IMG/VR virus record: IMGVR_UViG_2617270980_000003
Strand: one strand, 5' to 3'
Source: a virus
Taxonomy: Duplodnaviria; Heunggongvirae; Uroviricota; Caudoviricetes
Length of the DNA stretch: 64,000 bases
Below the pieces are notes generated by a model. It ran no database searches. It had not been told where the DNA came from and worked only from the letters and a program-made list of their open reading frames with translations. Shown here piece by piece: positions 1,954 through 55,882 of the stretch (position 1 is its first letter; the number at the start of each line of letters is the position of its first letter). Position numbers and translations under genes: made by a program.

Positions 1954-4041
1954 TCAGGCCAGCGGATCACTTTCTTTTAATTTCGCTTCGAGCAGTTGCA
2001 ATCCCCGCTGGAAATTACGCTCGTATTCTTCATCAGGTTCATCGTCAGCGACCGGTTGCTGAACGGTCACCGTATTACCCACAGGGCGGTATATGTTTTC
2101 CAGCCAGGGCTCCTGCGGCTTGTGCTCCAGCACGTTGACAACCTCATCCTCGGCATCACGGATTTTTTCCTCTGCGCGTTTACGCATGCCTTTAAGGCGC
2201 TGCTGCTGTTTGTAGTATTCCGCGCTGACAGGGAAGGCTTCGCGTTTATTGCCGTCCCATACCGCCTCGCAAATCACGCTGCCATCCGGGCGGCGCACGG
2301 TAATTCGTTCGGCATCATGAATGTCATAGCTGATAAGTACCTTACGGCCATGCTCGTCACGCAGCTCGGGCGCGTAGTAAATATTATTCAGCCAGCGTAT
2401 TTCACAGCGTCTTACAGGGCGCTCCACCATCGGCCGGAACATATCCCGCAGTTCAACATCGGACAGCCATTCAATTTCCGTGTCCTCTTCCGCCAGGCGT
2501 TTTTTTCTGAACTCCGCCGGGCTGTAATGTTTACCGTTCGGCTTCATGGGTAATTCATCGTGCGGCCGGTTGTTGTACCACTCAACACCGTCACGAATGG
2601 CATCAATCAGTTCAGACCAGGACGGTAAATCACGCATCGCTGACTGCTGCCGGGCGTTCAGCCGTTTGCCCTGTTGCAGGGCACTGAATGCCGAGCGTAA
2701 ATCGCGGTTGGTTTTACGTAACGTCTCGCGATCTGCTCCTTTCCCGAAATAGGTGCGGTATTTACGGGCTATGCGCATCGGTAATGTGCGGTTAAGCCGT
2801 TCGATAATGCCCCGTCCCTGCGGATTACCGGCAATCCCTGTCGGGTGATTAATCCCCAGTCGTGGCAGTATCCCCACAATCTCCTTATCCAGGACGTCGG
2901 CGGTTTCCCCGGAGCCATTATCCGAGTAATACAGAAACGGTTTGCCATGATGGCGAATACCGTGCTGTATGGCACCGGCTACGGCGAAAACATTTTCAGC
3001 CAGGTCAAGGCTCCAGCCCACCACAAAGCGCGTGCCACCGTCGATAACAAAGGTCACTTCCGGTGCGAATGGCCGCCCGTGAACCGGGTGCGCGCATTTC
3101 AGCTTCATGCCGTGACCGTCACCAATCCAGACATAATTCACCGGCATTTTTGACCAGTCGCGGCGCGTGAATCCCTCAAGCTGGCGGTATTCACTGCCGG
3201 TAACCCGTCCTTTTTGTTTCACCACTTCCGGCAGTTTCTTCATTGCGCGGCGAATGGTGTCATAAGACGGCATGATATCGAGCATATAAGGCTCATCAGC
3301 GTGCCGGTGCTGCCATTCGGCAACAAAATCCTCGTAAGCCTCGGTCATTGGTCGGCCGTTTGACTGGCGATACTGCGCCAGAAATTCGGGCAACCAGTTA
3401 ATATCTTCGGCTTTTATTTCCTGGCGTTTACCTGGTGCCAGCAAAAGCAGGCGTTCAGCAGCGTTCTGTGCCTTATTAAAGGCCGCAATCCAGCGTTTCA
3501 GCGTGATTTCACTCAACACGCGACTGTTTCCCTTTCTGGCGTTCGCTATCTCAACCATTGCCACAATGCGCTCATCCAGTTGCGAGTGTGACAGGCGGTC
3601 AACGATGAACCGGATAGCTTTAGCGCAGCTGAAACCGGGTTGTTGCGTGAATTTCAGCACCTCACTGACGATCGCAATGCGTGCGTCTGCCACCTGGCGC
3701 TGGTTTTCAGTCAGGGCATTGAGGCGTTCGACCATCAGTTGTGGTGATCCGCGATATGCCTCCACCGCATCAACCACGGCAGACGAGCGTCTGGCCTTTG
3801 TCACCACCGGAGCCGGTGATTCATCGGCTTTTTGCGTCATCAGTTGCAGGGCATAACGTTCGCGTAATGCCTGCTGTGTCACTTCAGGTAAACAGTCAAT
3901 GCTGTATTCAAAACCTTTAGCGCCTTTCTTGCGGCGTCTGCTGGTTTCGCTGGTTGCATACTTCCTGATTGAATAGCGAACGCCTTGCTCCGTTCCCGGC
4001 ATCCCCGGTAATCCAACCAGTTCTTTGACTGAAGCAAACAT
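1954..4041 (-). CDS. Mu A-like DDE transposase
   Basis: 695 aa, directly upstream of the B-like gene and downstream of ner; Mu-transposase-like core region; position as in Mu. Confidence 0.88.
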   Translation of the reverse strand: MFASVKELVGLPGMPGTEQGVRYSIRKYATSETSRRRKKGAKGFEYSIDCLPEVTQQALRERYALQLMTQKADESPAPVVTKARRSSAVVDAVEAYRGSPQLMVERLNALTENQRQVADARIAIVSEVLKFTQQPGFSCAKAIRFIVDRLSHSQLDERIVAMVEIANARKGNSRVLSEITLKRWIAAFNKAQNAAERLLLLAPGKRQEIKAEDINWLPEFLAQYRQSNGRPMTEAYEDFVAEWQHRHADEPYMLDIMPSYDTIRRAMKKLPEVVKQKGRVTGSEYRQLEGFTRRDWSKMPVNYVWIGDGHGMKLKCAHPVHGRPFAPEVTFVIDGGTRFVVGWSLDLAENVFAVAGAIQHGIRHHGKPFLYYSDNGSGETADVLDKEIVGILPRLGINHPTGIAGNPQGRGIIERLNRTLPMRIARKYRTYFGKGADRETLRKTNRDLRSAFSALQQGKRLNARQQSAMRDLPSWSELIDAIRDGVEWYNNRPHDELPMKPNGKHYSPAEFRKKRLAEEDTEIEWLSDVELRDMFRPMVERPVRRCEIRWLNNIYYAPELRDEHGRKVLISYDIHDAERITVRRPDGSVICEAVWDGNKREAFPVSAEYYKQQQRLKGMRKRAEEKIRDAEDEVVNVLEHKPQEPWLENIYRPVGNTVTVQQPVADDEPDEEYERNFQRGLQLLEAKLKESDPLA

Positions 4042-4043
4042 AA

Positions 4044-4274
4044 TTACGCGACCTTACGAATGTAGCGGCTGGGCCAAATCTCCTCGGGCGGCACCCCCAG
4101 GCATTCCGCGATAATCCCCTCATACTTGGGAACATGGCGGTATACCGCGTTGTACAGATTGTTCTGACCCACGCCAGCTTTACGGGCCAGCGCCCTCATG
4201 CTTCCTTCTCTGGCTCTGACTTCCCCCAAAATTCTTTGAGGATGCCAATCAGGCTTAACTTCATTTCTCGCCAT
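4044..4274 (-). CDS. ner: Ner-like DNA-binding regulator (Ner/Nlp family)
   Basis: 76 aa; DWHPxxI...EEIWPSRY pattern matches Mu Ner / E. coli Nlp as recalled; divergent from repressor gene. Confidence 0.85.
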   Translation of the reverse strand: MARNEVKPDWHPQRILGEVRAREGSMRALARKAGVGQNNLYNAVYRHVPKYEGIIAECLGVPPEEIWPSRYIRKVA

Positions 4275-4458
4275 GATTCATCTATCCTAAAAAGTTACGA
4301 AATTTGATAACTAAACTTAGTTATCAAGTTTGATATAAGTATTGATCCACCTCTGCTTCATGTAAAGCAAAAAAACATCTTTCTTTTGTCTATTGTGGAT
4401 CAATGGTTGCTGACAACACTAAAAGTTAATAATTTCAAATTGATAGGAAGAAAAGAAA
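4275..4458. promoter_or_regulatory. divergent early promoter/operator region between ner and repressor; near-perfect 24-bp palindrome TTGATAACTAAACTTAGTTATCAA at 4304-4327 plus further TTGATA half-sites
   Basis: Palindrome and TTGATA repeats read directly; location between divergently transcribed regulator genes. Confidence 0.5.
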
Positions 4459-5004
4459 ATGAACAAGCAAACAACAACATCTCTTTCTTTTCCTGGTGGT
4501 AGAAAAGAAAGCATTGCTGAGCGTCTGAAAAGGCTGATTGGCTCCCGCAGCGTCAGAGCTGCAGCAAGAGATTGGGGGCTTTCATTTTCAACACTAAACA
4601 ATTATCTGTCTCGTGGCACTGAGCCATCCTTAAGTGTCGCCCTTCAGATTGCGTCTATCGAAGGAGTAAGTGTTGAGTGGCTATGTGGATTCAGTGATGC
4701 ATCACAAGTGAATCGGTGTGAGATCAAGGAAAATCAAGATGAAAGCAAGAAGATAATTATGACGATTATCAGCGCACTTGATGAAAAAGACTTAGAGCAG
4801 CTATCGAAAAATTTGGTTCTGAATGGAGCCAAGTACTTAGCTCGGTTGTTAGAGCCTGAAAATCAAGATCTAATCCGCTTAGAAGGAAGGAAAAGAATAG
4901 CTGCATTACAGCTTGAAGGTATGTCTGACGAACGCGTCAGAGAGATTTTGGAAGAAACTGAGAGAAGTCGCAAATCTAACGCGGTAGAACCAAAAGCGGG
5001 TTAA
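4459..5004 (+). CDS. prophage repressor (HTH; not similar to Mu c itself)
   Basis: 181 aa at the Mu c position, transcribed toward the prophage end; N-terminal HTH-like segment (WGLSFSTLNNYLSRG). Confidence 0.65.
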   Translation: MNKQTTTSLSFPGGRKESIAERLKRLIGSRSVRAAARDWGLSFSTLNNYLSRGTEPSLSVALQIASIEGVSVEWLCGFSDASQVNRCEIKENQDESKKIIMTIISALDEKDLEQLSKNLVLNGAKYLARLLEPENQDLIRLEGRKRIAALQLEGMSDERVREILEETERSRKSNAVEPKAG

Positions 5005-23605: not shown

Positions 23606-23635
23606 AGACACTAAGCAAAAAAGCTCCCGAAGGGG
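23606..23635. terminator. bidirectional intrinsic terminator (hairpin flanked by A6 and T8)
   Basis: AAAAAAGCTCCCGAAGGGGCTTTTTTTT read directly. Confidence 0.5.
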
Positions 23636-23701
23636 CTTTTTTTTAAGATTTAACCAAATGAAATAAAAGGATTTATTTCAGGTCATGTCCACTTACCGAC
23701 C

Positions 23702-45663: not shown

Positions 45664-47013
45664 ATGCGATTGACCGCTCCTGTTAAAGCGTTCTCAGATG
45701 GTTTTAGTACAGCAGATGACATATTTGGACGTAAAAAACTTCATGACATCATCATGCGGGTAGCAACAAATGCCCCAGATAAAAGTCTTGTACTTGCGCT
45801 CAATGATGAATGGGGTAACGGAAAAACCTCATTTGTAAAAATGATGTCATCAGAAATAAATAAAAACCATGCTGACAACTTTGACGTTATTTACTTTGAC
45901 GCTTTTGAAAATGACTATCAATCAGACCCATTTGTAGCCTTAACATCAAAAATTTATTCACTCATAAAAAAAGAAGATGGAAAGCTTAAAAACCTCGGGA
46001 AAGAGTTATTATCCATTGGTAAAAAACTAGGCGCGTCATTCGCACTTAATGGTGCAAAATTTGCCGTAAGCACTTTCACAAGTGGATTAGTCTCAGGTAA
46101 CGCACTGGAGAAAGCAAGTGATGCCATCAGTGACTCTCTCACATCACCTATTGAAGAGTACATTGAAGAAAAAATAAAAACGAGCGAGAGTGAGTTAGCA
46201 ACAATTGAGCAATTTAGAGCATTGCTGACCAAGATTCACACTGAGTGTGGGAAAAAAATAATATTTATAATTGATGAGCTAGACAGGTCGCGACCTGATT
46301 TTTCCCTTGACTTGCTAGAGAAAATAAAACATATATTTTCAGTGGAAGGTTTTGTTTTCTTACTAGTAGTTAACCGTGAGCAGTTTGAAAAAAGTATAGA
46401 GTGTAGATATGGGAGCATAAATACAAGATTATATTTAAATAAATTTATTCATTATTGGTTTACTCTTCCTAAAAAAAGTATGCTCTCAGTAGGCTGCCGA
46501 GCAGGCTATGAACGTTCAACGTTAACACAATATCTCCTGTCGTTAGATCAAGGGAATGACATACTGATTCGGAATGGTTCTCTCGTAAAAACCCTCGCGT
46601 ATCTTCTAGAAATGAATAACTGTTCACTGCGAGAGGCTGAGCGTTGCTATTCAACATTCGCAATAATGAACGACCCCAGCGAAGTAAATTCCTACCGACA
46701 TGAAATATTTCATGTTGCCATCGCACTAGTTGCTTTCTTGAAAATATTCAACCAATCCTTACTCATGGAAATATTAAACAAAAAACTGACAGAAGATGAG
46801 ATATTTAAACGATTATCAATTCCTGTAAACCTTGTCGATGTTTCTGAGATTTATTATATTGCAATATTGTTAAAATACCACTTAGCCACCGATGAAGAAC
46901 TACGTTCCTCTGATATGCTCACTGAGTACGCATTCATGGCTGTAATACCTGGACAACGAGTCAAATGGTTTGAAATGATGTATGAGAAGATCGAAGGCTT
47001 TGATATTAACTGA
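45664..47013 (+). CDS. KAP-family P-loop NTPase (soluble; no TM insert evident), cargo in P2 old/tin hotspot
   Basis: Walker A LNDEWGNGKTSF and Walker B IIFIIDELDR; AT-rich; own SD (GAGGAAAAG); lies between cos/Q and gene A on the opposite strand to A. Confidence 0.8.
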   Translation: MRLTAPVKAFSDGFSTADDIFGRKKLHDIIMRVATNAPDKSLVLALNDEWGNGKTSFVKMMSSEINKNHADNFDVIYFDAFENDYQSDPFVALTSKIYSLIKKEDGKLKNLGKELLSIGKKLGASFALNGAKFAVSTFTSGLVSGNALEKASDAISDSLTSPIEEYIEEKIKTSESELATIEQFRALLTKIHTECGKKIIFIIDELDRSRPDFSLDLLEKIKHIFSVEGFVFLLVVNREQFEKSIECRYGSINTRLYLNKFIHYWFTLPKKSMLSVGCRAGYERSTLTQYLLSLDQGNDILIRNGSLVKTLAYLLEMNNCSLREAERCYSTFAIMNDPSEVNSYRHEIFHVAIALVAFLKIFNQSLLMEILNKKLTEDEIFKRLSIPVNLVDVSEIYYIAILLKYHLATDEELRSSDMLTEYAFMAVIPGQRVKWFEMMYEKIEGFDIN

Positions 47014-47292: not shown

Positions 47293-48444
47293 ATGTCATC
47301 AGAAAAAACAATAGAACGTTTCGTTGCAGCAGATGTTAGCGGTGCAATCTGGTTACGATTAAAACGATTAATGAGTGCGCAGCTCTGTAAGAAAATAATA
47401 GAAAATAATCATCCGTCATTGCAAGAGGATGTATTGATTAAAAAATCCATTGGAATGTCCTCCGCAATACGAAGTGCAATCGGATATTGGGAGACTGAAA
47501 ATGGCGGACTCAATTCAAAAATTTTATCCAGATATTATGCATTATTACAGATAAGCTTAGCTGAACAAATATCATCAGGGGATCCTAACGACGATTTAAA
47601 AAATGTTCAAAAGCATACGGTTTCAGGTCATGGGCTATTCACACAATCTGTTGAAAATGAAACATTCCCAGACAATATAAAAATAGGCTGTCTTAAAAGT
47701 GGACATTTTTATTCATATGCAAAGCATATAGGAATTGATATCAAACAGTATGCAACAGAAAGACGTCCAAAAAAAGATGAAGATTTAGACCCATCACGCA
47801 CCTATTCTTTAACTGATTTATTAAAACGAATTCCAGAATTAAGACCGCTTTTACAAGAAACTTTCGGTGAAGATCCACTTTCATTCCAAATTGGACAAGC
47901 AAGTAGAAACATGCTCTTAAGATCAAGGAATCAGTCACTCGGTGGCCTATCGCGTCCTAAACCAGAGTTCTCAGGTTTTACATATGCCGCAATTTATCCC
48001 AAAGGTAGCGATGTAACAGCAGAAGAGCTTAATTCTTACAACATTGGAATAAAAAACATTGAAATTGAGTCAGAAGAAAACCTCACAAAATATGACCAAC
48101 CATATTTTGTAGGAGAAGTCCATCACCCTGAAGATGAGCTATGGTGGGATTATGTCACGACACACAAATCTGGTTATTGTGGAACGAGTGTAATTGTCCC
48201 ATTTTGGGGAACTCAAGATCCCTTTGTATTACACTTAGTCGTATTATATACATTAAGCATTATAGTCAGGTATCTCCCTGACACTTGGTATGAGATTGAG
48301 CATGGCAAACTTGATTATATTAATTCCCTTTTGGAAAATTATTTAGCTATTTTTGATAGTGTACTGCCTAAACTTGCGGTTGAAAGATTAACGAAAGTTC
48401 ATTTGGTAGTAACAGCACCCGATAGCATGAATTCCCCTATCTAA
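47293..48444 (+). CDS. hypothetical protein, 383 aa, no recognised domain; hotspot cargo
   Basis: Long AT-rich ORF with SD (AAGGAACAG), preceded by its own AT-rich intergenic region and a hairpin after the KAP gene. Confidence 0.6.
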   Translation: MSSEKTIERFVAADVSGAIWLRLKRLMSAQLCKKIIENNHPSLQEDVLIKKSIGMSSAIRSAIGYWETENGGLNSKILSRYYALLQISLAEQISSGDPNDDLKNVQKHTVSGHGLFTQSVENETFPDNIKIGCLKSGHFYSYAKHIGIDIKQYATERRPKKDEDLDPSRTYSLTDLLKRIPELRPLLQETFGEDPLSFQIGQASRNMLLRSRNQSLGGLSRPKPEFSGFTYAAIYPKGSDVTAEELNSYNIGIKNIEIESEENLTKYDQPYFVGEVHHPEDELWWDYVTTHKSGYCGTSVIVPFWGTQDPFVLHLVVLYTLSIIVRYLPDTWYEIEHGKLDYINSLLENYLAIFDSVLPKLAVERLTKVHLVVTAPDSMNSPI

Positions 48445-48513: not shown

Positions 48514-48825
48514 TCAATCATCATCTTGGTCATCCCCAGTGTCGCGAACGCATGATTTTGACTCAAAGTATTTTTTTTCCGCAGCGGTAATCAGGGCTTG
48601 GTGTTCAGGGAAATCACGAAACACGTCTACTGCGGGCCATTCAATTTTCGTCACAACCAACTTAGGCCTACTTTCCACCTCAGCTTCATCCTGGCTGATA
48701 TAATGACTTTTTGACTCACGTTCCTCATGCGAAGATTCTCGATAATAGAGCCAATTTTGATAGTCAGCTTCCCGTTCATAATCATCAAAGTACTTGCCCA
48801 CGCTTCCCCCCATTAATGAGCGCAA
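48514..48825 (-). CDS. hypothetical acidic small protein downstream of gene A
   Basis: 103-aa ORF overlapping the A stop region; Asp-rich C-terminus. Confidence 0.35.
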   Translation of the reverse strand: MRSLMGGSVGKYFDDYEREADYQNWLYYRESSHEERESKSHYISQDEAEVESRPKLVVTKIEWPAVDVFRDFPEHQALITAAEKKYFESKSCVRDTGDDQDDD

Positions 48826-51364
48826 CCCTTAATCTTTCAAGGAGTACATCATTCTCCCGCTTCCTTTCCGCTTTAACTCTCTGCTTAACTTCATCGCGGC
48901 GCTGTTCGACTACTTCTACCCCCTTCAGCTTCATAGTACAAGCCAAGCAGAGCTTTTCATCGCCATAGGTTATATCATCCTGATTTAACTCCGCATTACA
49001 ATCTCTAGCCCTACAGTAAATTGCTTTGGTCTTTTCTACCAGATAGCCATCCTTCAGATAAACATGTCGATCATCAAAAGAAAGCAAAGCCCCGCGACGA
49101 AGGGCATCAATATCAGGCTTGGACTTAATTCCCCAAGAGGAAAGCTGATAGCGAAGGTGAGCAGTCATTGGTGTGGCCTCCACAACACTGCTCCGCCGGG
49201 TTGCTGATTCATCGCGGATAGCCGCCGCCACTTTCATGTAATTTTCAGCGCGCTCCTGATCTGCGCTATCGCAATCTGAAGCGGCAATAGCATTGGCAAG
49301 CGACTCAAACACATCAGCAGGTGATTTTTGCTGTTTTGGTTTGTAATTTCTGATGCTCTCATTAAGCCGTTTTTTCTGCTCTCGGCTCATTTGACCAATT
49401 TCATATTGTTCTGGATCTTCAGGCGGTGGATTTACCGCCCCTTGATTTGTATGTTTTTTGTACTCAGTACAGTTATTGACACGAGTCCAAGAGGGCGCGG
49501 GCGCGCCCTTAAGGTCAAAACCTCGATCGGCGGCGTCGTCTGCTTTTGGCTTCTTTTTGACAATGCGATAAGAATGGAGGCGGGTTTCAACCGGAGGAAC
49601 GGTCGATGCTGGCATGACCACCCCTTTAATAACCCTCTGAAACTCGCCGTAACTGCTCGGCTCATCCCGATATTGATACCAGGCGCGCAACACAAGCCTA
49701 TTCCGTGTCACGAACGGACCACCCTGCAAGGTGATGTAGTCCTGCCAGTTCCCGGCATGGGCGGCGCGGTGTAACTCACCGAAAACCGGACTGATTCGAT
49801 CTGCCATTTCCTGATTCTTCAGGCGGCGTAACTCACGCCAGACGGACACCGGCGCGCCACCCAGAAACTGAAACTGACGAATGCCCCAGCATGAAGCCCA
49901 GGCAGTAGCGTGTTTTGCTGTCTCCTTCAGTGGGCGTCCGCTTTCGTCGTCGCTTTCACCATCCAGTGCATAACCGTCGATGTTTTTAGATATGTACTTA
50001 ACGACATATCCAGTAGCGCTCCCCAAAGCCGGATCTATCGGCTTAAGTTCAAAGCGGGGCTGTTTGCCATTCTTGCCGGTGAGTTCATCAGCATCTTCAC
50101 GCGTGGCGTAGTCTTCCATCACTTCCAGCAATTCGCCGGTATGCTCTGGGGCTGTGAACAGAAGGCCATGCCAATGCGGAGTACCATCATGGTGAGACTC
50201 TGCAACACGAAGGCCAAAAACAGAAATCTCACGGCGCGCAAGCTCCGCGCGGATCAGTTGCCAGACGCGATTAAGGTAGTTTTGTGTCTTGCGGGGGCTG
50301 GCTCCGTTCCATTTGCGGTTACGATGCCCGAACGCTGTAAAGGCATGATATTTAGACGGCGCGGTCAGGGTGAAGAAACTGCCGGCAAACCCGCTTTCCG
50401 TTGCCACCTTCTCAAATCCACCAATGCGCGTCATCAACTCAACACGGCGCTTTTCAGGATTAGAAATGCTCTTATCAATCTGCTCTATCAGCGAAATGCG
50501 CTCACCAGTTACCTGATCTTCAAGTTCAAGGCGGCTCATAATTGCGCGGCTACGCTTACGGCGTGAATCCCACTGCGTAACGTGGTGTTTGCTGCAATAC
50601 GGTGAAACATCGCGGCGCACGTCACCATAGGCAATGTGCAAATGCTCGCGCCAGCGGCGGGCGTACTTGCGCAGGAGGCGTGACCAAAAGCGATCATGAA
50701 GGGTTTTTTGTATTGCTGCTGTCGCTTCATCAAGCGCCATCCGGCGCTTCTTCGCCCAGGGCGGCACTAACCTGAAATACGCAATCAGCCTGGAGCCTTC
50801 ACGCAGCATGCGTTTGGTGTATTCAGTATCGTTGAACACACTTGCACCCTCGCTCACTTCAGCCAAAACAGCATTGGCATAAATGGCTATGTCCTGAGCC
50901 AGCAAATCAATATCTTCATCCGTGCAATCCGCCAGATTATTAAAGCGGCGGACAAGTTCACGCAGATTTTCAAACGAGTGAAACAGTGGGTTTAGTTCAG
51001 AGAAAATGATCCACTCATTGTCTTCTGGCACAGCGTATTGTTTCGTGACGTTTCTGACGTGTGGAAGCTCGCGCTTAACGATGTCGCGCAACTTCAGTTT
51101 TGCGATATGGCGCCCTTTATCCTCGTGAACGGTATTTATGTAAGAGGCAATGCGGCGGCGAATGAAGATAGGCAACGGCTTGAGGGGATTTTCAACCCAG
51201 GCGAAAAACTCCTGCTCTTGACCCAATTCATATAGATCAACAGCGGGAGCCTTATCAACGAAGATGGCGGCTTTTGGCTCATTCCAGGCGTAAGCATACC
51301 GGGCTGGCTCGATAGAGCCTCCCGGCATGTTGGTCATGCTATGAGAGCGGCGAAATGAAGACAT
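48785..51364 (-). CDS. A: replication initiation protein A (rolling-circle endonuclease)
   Basis: 859 aa; TLTAPSKYH, HHDGTPHWH, GYVVKYISKNIDGYALDG, TAWAS motifs match P2 gpA as recalled. Confidence 0.9.
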   Translation of the reverse strand: MSSFRRSHSMTNMPGGSIEPARYAYAWNEPKAAIFVDKAPAVDLYELGQEQEFFAWVENPLKPLPIFIRRRIASYINTVHEDKGRHIAKLKLRDIVKRELPHVRNVTKQYAVPEDNEWIIFSELNPLFHSFENLRELVRRFNNLADCTDEDIDLLAQDIAIYANAVLAEVSEGASVFNDTEYTKRMLREGSRLIAYFRLVPPWAKKRRMALDEATAAIQKTLHDRFWSRLLRKYARRWREHLHIAYGDVRRDVSPYCSKHHVTQWDSRRKRSRAIMSRLELEDQVTGERISLIEQIDKSISNPEKRRVELMTRIGGFEKVATESGFAGSFFTLTAPSKYHAFTAFGHRNRKWNGASPRKTQNYLNRVWQLIRAELARREISVFGLRVAESHHDGTPHWHGLLFTAPEHTGELLEVMEDYATREDADELTGKNGKQPRFELKPIDPALGSATGYVVKYISKNIDGYALDGESDDESGRPLKETAKHATAWASCWGIRQFQFLGGAPVSVWRELRRLKNQEMADRISPVFGELHRAAHAGNWQDYITLQGGPFVTRNRLVLRAWYQYRDEPSSYGEFQRVIKGVVMPASTVPPVETRLHSYRIVKKKPKADDAADRGFDLKGAPAPSWTRVNNCTEYKKHTNQGAVNPPPEDPEQYEIGQMSREQKKRLNESIRNYKPKQQKSPADVFESLANAIAASDCDSADQERAENYMKVAAAIRDESATRRSSVVEATPMTAHLRYQLSSWGIKSKPDIDALRRGALLSFDDRHVYLKDGYLVEKTKAIYCRARDCNAELNQDDITYGDEKLCLACTMKLKGVEVVEQRRDEVKQRVKAERKRENDVLLERLRVALINGGKRGQVL

Positions 51365-51546
51365 TAAGCCGCCTCAGATGAAAACCGTGTCGCCTGGCTG
51401 TATCGCTCTTGCGTCACGTTCAGAGTAGGTGATCAGGTCTGTATTGCTGTAACCACCCTCGCCCAGAACTTCAACGCGAGTGATCCAATAATTACGGCGC
51501 GGGAGAACATCCAGCACCTTTGTCACTACAACCTCAACGGTATTCA

Positions 51547-52011
51547 TCAGAATGGCGCTCCATCATCAAAATCGAACGGGGGAGGCGTCGTCTTCCATGT
51601 CACCGGTTTACCTGGTTTACATTTCCGCGCGGCCTTGACTGTTGGATAGTTGAGGGAATGCCGGACAACTTCATCAGTCCACAAATCGTGCGCCTCGAAA
51701 TCAACGCGCCAGCAACCTTTGCTAATGCAGCGGCGTGAAAAAACGCGCGTAACAACGGCGCAAACCGTATGACTTTCAGGCTCGGCTTCAGCGGCAGGAT
51801 CAAAGCCAAGAAAAACAAGCTCACTACTGTGAGACTTAATCAGGGGATCAAGAACCGCCCCGAAAGACTTACGAAGCGTCTTTTCAACATCAGGGCCAGC
51901 CAAAAGACCTGCATAACCAGCGTGAATTAATGCAGCCTCTTTTGCCTTTTCTAACGCCGCTATCGCGCCTTGCAGATAGCTCACGTGATCGTTAATGGAC
52001 GGAGTAATCAT
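51547..52011 (-). CDS. hypothetical protein between dam and A
   Basis: About 154 aa from MITPSIN, start overlapping dam stop; not recognised as P2 B. Confidence 0.4.
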   Translation of the reverse strand: MITPSINDHVSYLQGAIAALEKAKEAALIHAGYAGLLAGPDVEKTLRKSFGAVLDPLIKSHSSELVFLGFDPAAEAEPESHTVCAVVTRVFSRRCISKGCWRVDFEAHDLWTDEVVRHSLNYPTVKAARKCKPGKPVTWKTTPPPFDFDDGAPF

Positions 52012-53003
52012 CAGAAGTCCTCTGCTGCTGTGTATGAATCGCAGATCTCGCAGTTGCGACAGCAAAAGGTATCGCTTCCAGATTCATAGCCATCGCCAGC
52101 AACGGCAGGGCAACAGGTAGCGCAATAACCACGCCCTACTTGCCCGCACTCGTCACAGACGAGCAGCGAACCAATCACCTCACCCGCGAGATTGCGTGTT
52201 TTTGCTCCCACAGAACGCCGGACTTCGAATGAGTTAAGGGTGAACGGGTAGTAAATTTGGCGCGTTTCCGGGGTGTCACTGCCGGAAATAACAGAGGGTA
52301 TTTTTGCCTGGTTGTAGAGGCGTGAAAGCATCGCAACCAGGGCGCGATGGTCTTCATCAGTAAAGGGCTTACCGTATGCAGTAAAATTTGCAGTCTCGCT
52401 GGCTGGCAGGTATGGAGGATCGCAATAAACCACGCAGCCTGAATGCCCGATAGATAGAGGAATTGTTTCTCTGAAATCACCATGCAGGAACATTGCCCCT
52501 TTGTCCCAAGCCCTTTTTGCAAAATGCTGAATCTCAGCCACAGGGAAAATTGGCTTCTTACGAAAACCAAAAGGAACGTTGAATTCATTCTTTAAATTAA
52601 CACGGTAAACACCGTTGTAGCAGTGACGATTCAAATAAAGAAATAGCGCTGCATATTTAACTAATTCATCATTTGTATATTGCTCTCTATGCCCTGCGTA
52701 CTCGCGATTAAAAATATTGAAGTCATCACGATTTATGTAATATGCATCTTCATTATTACCAGTCAAAAACAAGGCGGATGCATAAGTTAAAAGCGCTTCT
52801 GTGTTGCGCTTAACCATAGAGAAGAAATTAATTAGGGCTGCATTGCTATCACACAGAATATAGGTTTTATAGTCTGTATTCAGAAAGACGCTACCACTAC
52901 CCACAAAAGGCTCAACGAGGCATTCACCCTGCGGCAGAGCATCCAGTACATGAGGCATCGCGCGAGACTTGCCGCCAGCCCAGATCAGAGGGGAGTTAAT
53001 CAC
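52011..53003 (-). CDS. dam: DNA adenine methyltransferase (Dam-like, D12 class) with Cys-rich C-terminal extension
   Basis: PLIWAGGK near N-terminus, FVGSGSVF (AdoMet), DPPY catalytic motif; GTG start at 53001-53003 with AAGGAG 7 nt upstream; C-terminal ~50 aa contains about 10 Cys. Confidence 0.8.
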   Translation of the reverse strand: MINSPLIWAGGKSRAMPHVLDALPQGECLVEPFVGSGSVFLNTDYKTYILCDSNAALINFFSMVKRNTEALLTYASALFLTGNNEDAYYINRDDFNIFNREYAGHREQYTNDELVKYAALFLYLNRHCYNGVYRVNLKNEFNVPFGFRKKPIFPVAEIQHFAKRAWDKGAMFLHGDFRETIPLSIGHSGCVVYCDPPYLPASETANFTAYGKPFTDEDHRALVAMLSRLYNQAKIPSVISGSDTPETRQIYYPFTLNSFEVRRSVGAKTRNLAGEVIGSLLVCDECGQVGRGYCATCCPAVAGDGYESGSDTFCCRNCEICDSYTAAEDF

Positions 53004-53163
53004 TTTTTTGCTCCTTGATTTCTGCGGCCTGTTCTCTGTTGTCGATCCAGTTTTCCAGGCTGCGATAAATTTCATTGGTGGACAGTTTTTCTTTTTTCAG
53101 CAAGGTTAATTTGATACGTAACAATCCAAGCAGGTGCGCGCGTTCATTTGTTTGAATTGTCAT
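53001..53163 (-). CDS. small hypothetical protein (about 54 aa) translationally coupled to dam
   Basis: ATG at 53161-53163, stop overlapping the dam GTG start (GTGATTAA); not in ORF track because below its size cut-off. Confidence 0.3.
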
Positions 53164-55578: not shown

Positions 55579-55882
55579 TTTATAGCGGCTTTCAGTGGCT
55601 TTATGTGGTGCTCAAACCCGCATTACACCGCTGAAAGCCCGTATATCAAAGGGCTACCAACGCCCCCGATGGAGCCTTCATTTTCACTTTCTTAAATCTA
55701 ACGATAGACGGCTAACATTTAAGTATTGTGAAATATTATCAAATGTAATCATCATTGATTTACAAAAGATACATTTTGCCCCGAAAGGATTCCTGTCAGA
55801 AACATCAAAAGATGATGTTCTATACTGAGAACCATGGCAACACGGGCATCTAAAGTGAATATGGTTTGTAATATTTTCTACC

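Follow-up and report, generated by a model that had tools for sequence, protein, structure and literature searches.

Why should a prophage-borne DNA adenine methyltransferase (Dam) end in a cysteine-rich, acidic tail that the Dam of its host lacks? The question is raised by a dam gene in a 64,000-nucleotide stretch of viral DNA (IMG/VR record IMGVR_UViG_2617270980_000003; the whole stretch is called the window here), where the carrier of the gene is a P2-like (Peduoviridae) prophage in E. coli. An earlier note on this DNA, made from the letters alone, had described the tail as about 50 residues with about 10 cysteines; the string that it quoted is exact, but we counted 9 cysteines in the last 51 residues, and the tail holds 9 acidic and 2 basic residues, giving a net charge of -7. 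Here, we asked whether this tail is real, to what it is related and what it might do. We suggest, with a probability of roughly one half, that the gene encodes an orphan Dam whose tail begins with a diverged copy of part of a four-cysteine (Cys4) module of about 30 residues and would serve as a metal-binding docking adaptor, positioning the methylase on replicating or recombining phage DNA.

We compared the tail with those of the 120 closest cluster representatives and with our homologue alignment (A1), whose members share 47-94% overall identity. Four cysteines, C283, C286, C294 and C297, are invariant in this alignment and form two CxxC pairs, that is, four candidate metal ligands. A C-terminal CxxC...CxxC pattern was found in 115 of the 120 representatives; the tail, which the earlier note had called unusual, is thus typical of the prophage Dam family, and just its second Cys cluster is a minority variant, carried by 9 of the 120 and reading FCCRNCEIC in the window versus DCCGNCEAC in the relatives of the SEN type. 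In comparisons of the window with the related prophages of E. coli ES1 and AMSCJX04, the ratio of nonsynonymous to synonymous substitution rates (dN/dS) was 0.03-0.07 for the tail, at synonymous divergences (dS) of 0.5-0.9, and 0.09-0.14 for the catalytic domain. The tail is under purifying selection, and the constraint on it is no looser than that on the catalytic domain. That it is a functionless read-through or annotation artefact, a possibility raised by the earlier note and in keeping with the failure of every domain database to recognise it and of AlphaFold2 to fold it, is excluded by these dN/dS values, by four cysteines invariant down to 47% identity, by the 115 relatives with the same pattern and by a stop position fixed by coupling to the next gene.

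The absence of such a tail from host Dam was correctly anticipated: the host enzyme has 278 aa, and its alignment with the window protein ends near residue 254. Two 65-aa proteins from Raoultella and relatives, P0122 (found on 5 contigs) and P0123, are in-frame internal deletions of dam in which the first 13 residues are fused to the Cys-rich tail; they may point to independent retention of the tail, or may simply be decay products. In a 79%-identical prophage of E. coli strain 6409 (L009, positions 3645-4565), dam is annotated as a pseudogene and its C-terminus is missing, and the tail-bearing end of dam is thus lost in some lineages.

The earlier note had also likened the tail to a zinc ribbon and proposed a domain search. 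Searched alone, the tail gave no match in Pfam (including matches up to E <= 10), NCBIfam, PHROG or PADLOC, and a profile search of the PDB returned chance-level CxxC matches alone (E >= 0.046), so that the search recognised no family in any of these collections. Among curated zinc-ribbon families, none matched the window tail at E <= 10, and the best Pfam value (E = 0.24) was obtained with a canonical relative. The resemblance to C4 zinc ribbons and knuckles (TFIIB PF08271, eL43, rubredoxin-like) therefore stands as far as the Cys spacing goes, with two CxxC pairs 6-8 residues apart, but it does not extend to a significant sequence match (E 0.24-2) or to a confidently predicted tail fold that could be compared.

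A profile built from the Dam tails retrieved short proteins and fragments named "exonuclease", and tblastn placed these fragments within RecE (exonuclease VIII) of Rac-like and Shiga toxin (Stx) lambdoid phages. From RecE, DnaQ-like exonucleases, small proteins and Dam tails we defined a module that is uncurated, with a 33-residue consensus of C-x2-C-G-x2-GGG-x-CPDCG-[PA]-VMGD-x-TY-x-[EA]-M-[FE] and an alternative first half of C-x3-G-P-x-C-x-G. HMMER, run exhaustively over 1.84 billion representatives, gave 120 matches at E <= 1e-3, about 40 of which, each a single stretch, were judged genuine; matches in several stretches of long proteins were taken, without inspection, as false positives from Cys-rich repeats. 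The module is C-terminal in Dam, and it was also found in RecE-like proteins with a PD-(D/E)XK nuclease (DUF3799/Exonuc_VIII), in RecE-like proteins with a DnaQ-like exonuclease of the Rv2179c type, in Aeromonas phage proteins of about 300 aa and in many proteins of 80-190 aa that have the module at their end. One of the small carriers, a 79-aa protein ending in a canonical module (L006, positions 59-298 of a Logan SRR32119628 contig), lies directly upstream of kil, gemA and a DUF3164 gene in a Mu-like early region, and the range of the module thus takes in P2-like, lambdoid and Mu-like phages. A scan of one genome per species with the single pattern GGGxCPDCG found it in Enterobacterales only, barring three false positives and one probable mis-binned metagenome-assembled genome; Dam with the module occurred in 11 Enterobacterales species, and both RecE-like architectures were present.

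In RecE of E. coli K-12 (L012), the module occupies residues 516-546 and scores 60 bits against a hidden Markov model (HMM) built without Dam sequences. The canonical module of RecE from the Rac prophage is homologous to the Dam tails of this prophage family; it differs in position, being internal and placed immediately before the PD-(D/E)XK nuclease domain (residues 564-866 in K-12), whereas in the Dam tails it is C-terminal. Acidic low-complexity linkers flank the module in RecE. In recE of Rac-SA53 (L004) the module lies at residues 541-564, and the truncated RecE forms used in recombineering are without it. A 2023 review describes the N-terminal region of RecE as "of unknown function" and never mentions zinc (PMC11611040). 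Neither CPDCG nor VMGDATY was found in any paper of the searched literature, in which all matches to "GDATY" were the sequence of green fluorescent protein, and searches there for P2-like Dam with zinc and for RecE with zinc returned nothing relevant. We found no description of the module in any curated domain library or in any paper of the searched literature, and it appears to be undescribed. Taken together, these sequence comparisons show a canonical module that is common to Dam, RecE and other phage DNA enzymes.

How does the window tail relate to this module? Its first knuckle, VCDECGQVGRGYC, fits the pattern C-x2-C-G-x2-G-G-G-x-C, and against the canonical HMM, which includes Dam tails, the tail scored 13.8 bits over module positions 3-24 (aligned segment VCDECGQVGRGYCATCCPaVAGD), a score reached by none of 2000 composition-preserving shuffles. 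By this measure, homology links the first knuckle to the canonical Dam tails, at a level that is weak but above chance. The P2-like Dams of Klebsiella phage 3LV2017, of ST16-OXA48phi5.4 and of Salmonella phages SEN4/SEN5, annotated merely as "DNA adenine methylase", resemble the window enzyme in their position between cox and gpA, in their length of 311-330 aa and in their C-terminal Cys4 knuckle. Most P2-like Dams have the canonical CPDCGxVMGDATY tail with 4-6 cysteines, whereas the window and SEN4/5 clades have 9-10 cysteines and the second cluster. Tail type and Dam domain do not always travel together: in P0006 a canonical tail follows a Dam domain 92% identical to that of the window, while P0005 combines a Dam domain of 84% identity with a window-type tail at 94%. 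These mosaics show, at the level of sequence, that tails are exchangeable between Dam domains.

The domain to which the tail is attached is orthodox. The earlier note had assigned the gene to a Dam-like prophage methyltransferase, which was confirmed by the Pfam family PF02086 (residues 8-263, E 2.5e-55, 188.4 bits against a cutoff of 22) together with the P2-like prophage setting. TIGR00571 was matched at 223.9 bits (cutoff 114.85) and the E. coli enzyme EcoDam (PDB 2g1p) at E 1.1e-56 over residues 6-268, whereas the score against the host-Dam equivalog NF008152 of NCBIfam, 238.3 bits, stayed below its 441-bit cutoff; by these scores the window Dam is a phage paralogue and not the chromosomal dam. 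The two motifs named in the earlier note, FVGSGSVF (residues 33-40) and DPPY (195-198), were both found, so that the S-adenosylmethionine-binding FxGxG and the catalytic DPPY are present in that order, as in EcoDam, with which fold and motif order are common over residues 6-268. AlphaFold2, run on the full Dam with 55 homologues, modelled the catalytic domain confidently. Residues Y119, N120, L122, R124 and P134 of EcoDam act in target recognition, and K9 and Y138 contact the first base pair (PMC4417163); the equivalents of Y119, N120, R124 and P134 are conserved in the window Dam, and L122 is replaced by V. EcoDam further differs in that it lacks the 50-residue Cys-rich acidic tail, whereas the window Dam is prophage-encoded and lies in a replication operon. 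Apart from gpA, no gene of this operon has an identified nuclease domain that could make it a restriction partner, and the methylase is therefore an orphan. The catalytic domain is that of an orthodox Dam, which most probably methylates GATC. Anti-restriction or epigenetic control, the roles put forward in the earlier note, are plausible for such an enzyme. Epigenetic control of the lysis-lysogeny switch was considered and rejected: the cox/C intergenic (switch) region is devoid of GATC, and the ratio of observed to expected GATC in the prophage, 0.89, is unremarkable and shows no depletion.

Given an orphan Dam with a selected tail, we propose the following course of events. Dam would be expressed from the early operon (cox to gpA) by translational coupling with its neighbours. 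The tail would bind metal, its nine cysteines possibly making up two Cys4 sites and one spare, and would act as a protein-docking adaptor rather than as a DNA-binding element. It would hold the methylase at a partner shared with RecE and DnaQ-like enzymes on replicating or recombining phage DNA, and nascent phage DNA would thereby be methylated promptly. More generally, Enterobacterales phages would attach the module through flexible linkers to Dam and to exonucleases of the RecE-type PD-(D/E)XK and DnaQ-like kinds. We favour docking over DNA binding because the tail is acidic, because low-complexity linkers join the module to unrelated catalytic domains and because small, non-enzymatic proteins carry it as well; canonical modules have net charges of -3 to -8. 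With three kinds of phage sharing the module (P2-like, lambdoid and Mu-like), its partner is more likely to come from the host than from a phage.

Several observations weigh against this proposal. AlphaFold2 gave the tail no confident fold, with a predicted local distance difference test score (pLDDT) <50 for residues 298-330, and a run on the canonical module (138 rows) reached a mean pLDDT of 54. Against the HMM built from non-Dam proteins only, the window tail scored 3.8 bits, a value reached by 16 of 2000 shuffles, and when it was ranked among the window's own open reading frames (ORFs) its E value of 0.09 was not significant; the window tail is therefore tied to RecE transitively, by way of canonical Dam tails. 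The near-invariant core CPDCG-x-VMGD-x-TY is not present in the window tail, which has CATCCPAVAGDGY; the core is replaced by CATCC-P...GDGY and the second cluster, a form confined to two clades, that of the window and the distant SEN4/SEN5 one. The close prophages in ES1 and AMSCJX04 are without the 154-aa ORF that follows dam in the window (ORF154), which is therefore not an obligatory Dam partner. Finally, both first-base-pair contacts of the methylase are changed, K9 to I (I7) and Y138 to R (R148), which leaves strict GATC specificity unassured. These two positions covary in all of the 120 nearest representatives where both could be read, K occurring with Y, F or H, and I with R. The exchange may represent a relocated positive charge and hence a compensated contact, or it may alter first-base specificity.

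The docking proposal can be widened. Both forms of the Cys4 module could be an unrecognised metal-dependent docking domain. With it, Enterobacterales phages of the P2-like, lambdoid and Mu-like lifestyles would bring DNA enzymes that are not related to each other (Dam, RecE and DnaQ-like exonucleases), as well as small effectors, to a single host hub at intermediates of replication or recombination, which would also explain the contribution of the RecE N-terminal region. We regard this wider version as less likely than not.

CxxC...CxxC knuckles commonly bind nucleic acids, and all identified enzymatic hosts of the module act on DNA. The tail could thus be a DNA-binding zinc ribbon that raises the affinity or processivity of the module-bearing DNA enzymes or changes their specificity, and its similarity to the TFIIB and eL43 zinc ribbons, at the weakest level, points the same way. 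We consider this unlikely, given that 9 acidic residues against 2 basic ones, and the net negative charge of the canonical modules too, are atypical of a DNA-binding finger, and that no nucleic-acid-binding zinc-ribbon family was matched significantly.

The same acidity could be read as a sign of self-control. Acidic C-terminal tails autoinhibit SSB (the protein that binds single-stranded DNA) and T7 gp2.5, and a tail with a net charge of -7, predicted with low confidence in both AlphaFold2 runs as a flexible appendage might be, could act as a DNA mimic in the Dam cleft or as a stability or degron element, limiting activity until it is released. Such intramolecular regulation would leave unexplained why the module also stands upstream of RecE-like nuclease domains or ends small proteins, and we hold it to be quite unlikely.

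Another proposal concerns the metal itself. In the window, C315-x2-C318-x2-C321 together with C297-C298-P299 resembles a ferredoxin-like CxxCxxC...CP arrangement, and the CxxCxxC element is common to the relatives of the SEN type (CGNCEAC), so that a window-type tail might hold an iron-sulfur cluster in place of zinc, as a redox-sensitive or structural appendage of the kind known from several DNA repair enzymes. Two relatives, P0024 and P0047, have CRGNCxxC, with one Cys of the CC pair lost; a Pfam search as permissive as E <= 10 brought up no ferredoxin or iron-sulfur family; and the canonical module has just four cysteines, in rubredoxin-like pairs. With these points on the other side, an iron-sulfur cluster is improbable.

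The extreme C-terminus of Dam suggested a further partner. The C-terminal tip of SSB is DFDDDIPF (PMC5531588), and among the 115 tail-bearing Dam representatives 94 have F as their last residue and E at position -3, some tails ending in IPF or EPF; among the real genes of the window, only Dam and ORF154 have an acidic-aromatic tip. The E-x-F-COOH end could therefore mimic the SSB tip and dock Dam onto SSB-interacting proteins. Its codons, G-GAG-Gnn-TTC-TGA-TG, are at the same time the Shine-Dalgarno sequence and the overlapping ATG of the next gene, and the conservation of the tip is therefore largely a nucleotide-level constraint. The motif is lost at most uncoupled loci (L002, ETW with GAA; L022, VCE; L026, PAC), L024 retains the Shine-Dalgarno sequence and not the peptide, and the window Dam ends in AAEDF, with no Pro. 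This mimicry by Dam is largely rejected, and we consider it very improbable.

The features of dam and its neighbours are collected in Table 1.

Table 1. Positions in the window of dam, its motifs and tail, and the flanking genes of the early operon
Feature	Position	Strand	Details
dam, Dam-family N6-adenine DNA methyltransferase	52011..53003	(-)	330 aa, GTG start, TGA stop
Shine-Dalgarno AAGGAG (53011-53016), 7-nt spacer and GTG (53001-53003)	53001..53016	(-)	within 3' end of upstream ORF
Catalytic and DNA-recognition domain, residues 1-278	52170..53003	(-)	PF02086, EcoDam alignment, AlphaFold2
FVGSGSV motif	52887-52907	(-)	Dam residues 33-39
DPPY motif	52410-52421	(-)	Dam residues 195-198, codons GAT CCT CCA TAC
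Cys-rich acidic C-terminal tail, residues 281-330	52014..52163	(-)	9 Cys, net charge -7
First Cys cluster, C283-x2-C286-x7-C294-x2-C297-C298	52110..52157	(-)	diverged copy of module first half
Second Cys cluster, C314-C315-x2-C318-x2-C321	52041..52064	(-)	only window clade and SEN4/SEN5 clade
Upstream 55-aa ORF, phrog_12723, TAA overlaps dam GTG	52996..53163	(-)	PHROG match E 3.9e-16
ORF154, 154 aa, ATG overlaps dam TGA (TGATG), ends PPPFDFDDGAPF	51547..52011	(-)	mosaic
57-aa ORF, phrog_8110, next coupled early-operon gene	51374..51547	(-)	PHROG match
P2 gpA-type replication endonuclease, last of early operon	48785..51364	(-)	PF05840 E 6.7e-95

The longest ORF over dam (52011-53075) opens with an ATG at 53075. 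The true start is the GTG at 53003-53001, because the Shine-Dalgarno sequence AAGGAG sits 7 nt upstream of it, because annotated homologues open M-I-x-S-P at the equivalent position and because the EcoDam alignment begins at residue 6; the stop codon occupies 52011-52013 on the minus strand. In GTGATTAA, the start codon of dam lies together with the TAA that ends the upstream ORF, and the overlap that the earlier note had seen there is real and 8 nt long. The upstream ORF has 55 aa from its ATG; the 54 aa given for it before fits the ES1 relative.

The early operon runs in the order Cox (PF10743), a DUF4761 protein, a 93-aa ORF, the 55-aa ORF, Dam, ORF154, the 57-aa ORF and gpA (PF05840), with the C-type repressor and the integrase encoded divergently from it. 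E. coli ES1, at 94% nucleotide identity, and AMSCJX04, at 84%, are annotated with this gene order as well. All gene junctions in the operon are tight, the dam TGA likewise overlapping the next ATG (TGATG), and coupling to the 55-aa ORF therefore reflects the operon as a whole. The start/stop overlap on which the earlier note based its claim of a coupled small ORF exists, but it is generic operon packing, and "coupled" overstates it. The 55-aa ORF shares 64% identity over 39 aa with a 73-aa ORF upstream of the exonuclease gene in L003. As a Dam-specific partner it was ruled out: its homologue in a Klebsiella P2-like element precedes an exonuclease gene, two genes from dam, and neither in SEN5 nor in the Klebsiella element is the ORF in front of dam homologous to it. 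When the 55-aa ORF and ORF154 were searched against the phage collection with tblastn, neither was matched.

ORF154 is rare, with two clusters in 5.8 billion proteins, and it is composite. Its residues 6-63 share 41% identity with a small ORF upstream of dam in the Klebsiella element. For residues 67-143, the family members are 86-92-aa ORFs, unannotated or labelled hypothetical, that are TGATG-coupled downstream of dam in Kluyvera, Citrobacter, Buttiauxella and the Klebsiella element. The end of ORF154, FDFDDGAPF, and that of the Kluyvera member, DDDLPF, are both near the SSB tip; the former fits the SSB pattern better than Dam does, yet its GA codons embed the GGAG for the next gene. A boundary cassette, GGAG-N5-6-TTC-TGA-TG, was seen at the ends of both dam and ORF154 (window 51374-53003 (-); L001, L003, L008, L018-L031), and in ES1 the same junction links dam straight to the 57-aa ORF. 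This cassette may be a module exchange point in early operons.

By comparison with an uninterrupted E. coli locus, the prophage was bounded at about 23634-55658 in the window. It is nested in a Qin-like lambdoid prophage, in which ynfN and ynfQ flank this P2-like prophage of about 32 kb; the junctions lie at about 23620-23640 and 55655-55675, at a terminator-like hairpin. The unoccupied site in E. coli PSJ-07 reads AAAAAAGCTCCCGAAGGAGCC, and the junction cores are imperfectly matched (CCCGAAGG versus CCCGATGG). The window gpA has 859 aa versus 813-819 aa in ES1 and AMSCJX04 and differs from them at its C-terminus; within its last ~100 residues, the extension carries YCRARDC-x17-CLAC, a motif that may bind metal. 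The position of the P2 tin/old hotspot, which separates gpA from the portal/terminase genes, is occupied by a KAP-family P-loop NTPase gene (45664-47013 (+)), which matches the PADLOC candidate system PDC-S20 (E 1e-74), and a gene for a YaaC-like protein (47293-48444 (+), PF14175); from these matches and this position, the pair look like defence cargo carried by the prophage.

Phage Dams are usually treated as plain copies of host Dam. Judged from its sequence, the window enzyme has the function and the family of an ordinary prophage Dam, and its accessory tail is genuine; the family to which it belongs bears a selected, swappable Cys-rich appendage that is common to RecE and other phage DNA enzymes. 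If the module is merely a structural metal knuckle, the gain is a modest one in the annotation of a widespread prophage gene. If its role is targeting, it would reveal how a prophage directs its methylase to its own replicating DNA, and residues 516-546 of K-12 RecE would become a concrete handle on the N-terminal region of a standard recombineering reagent.

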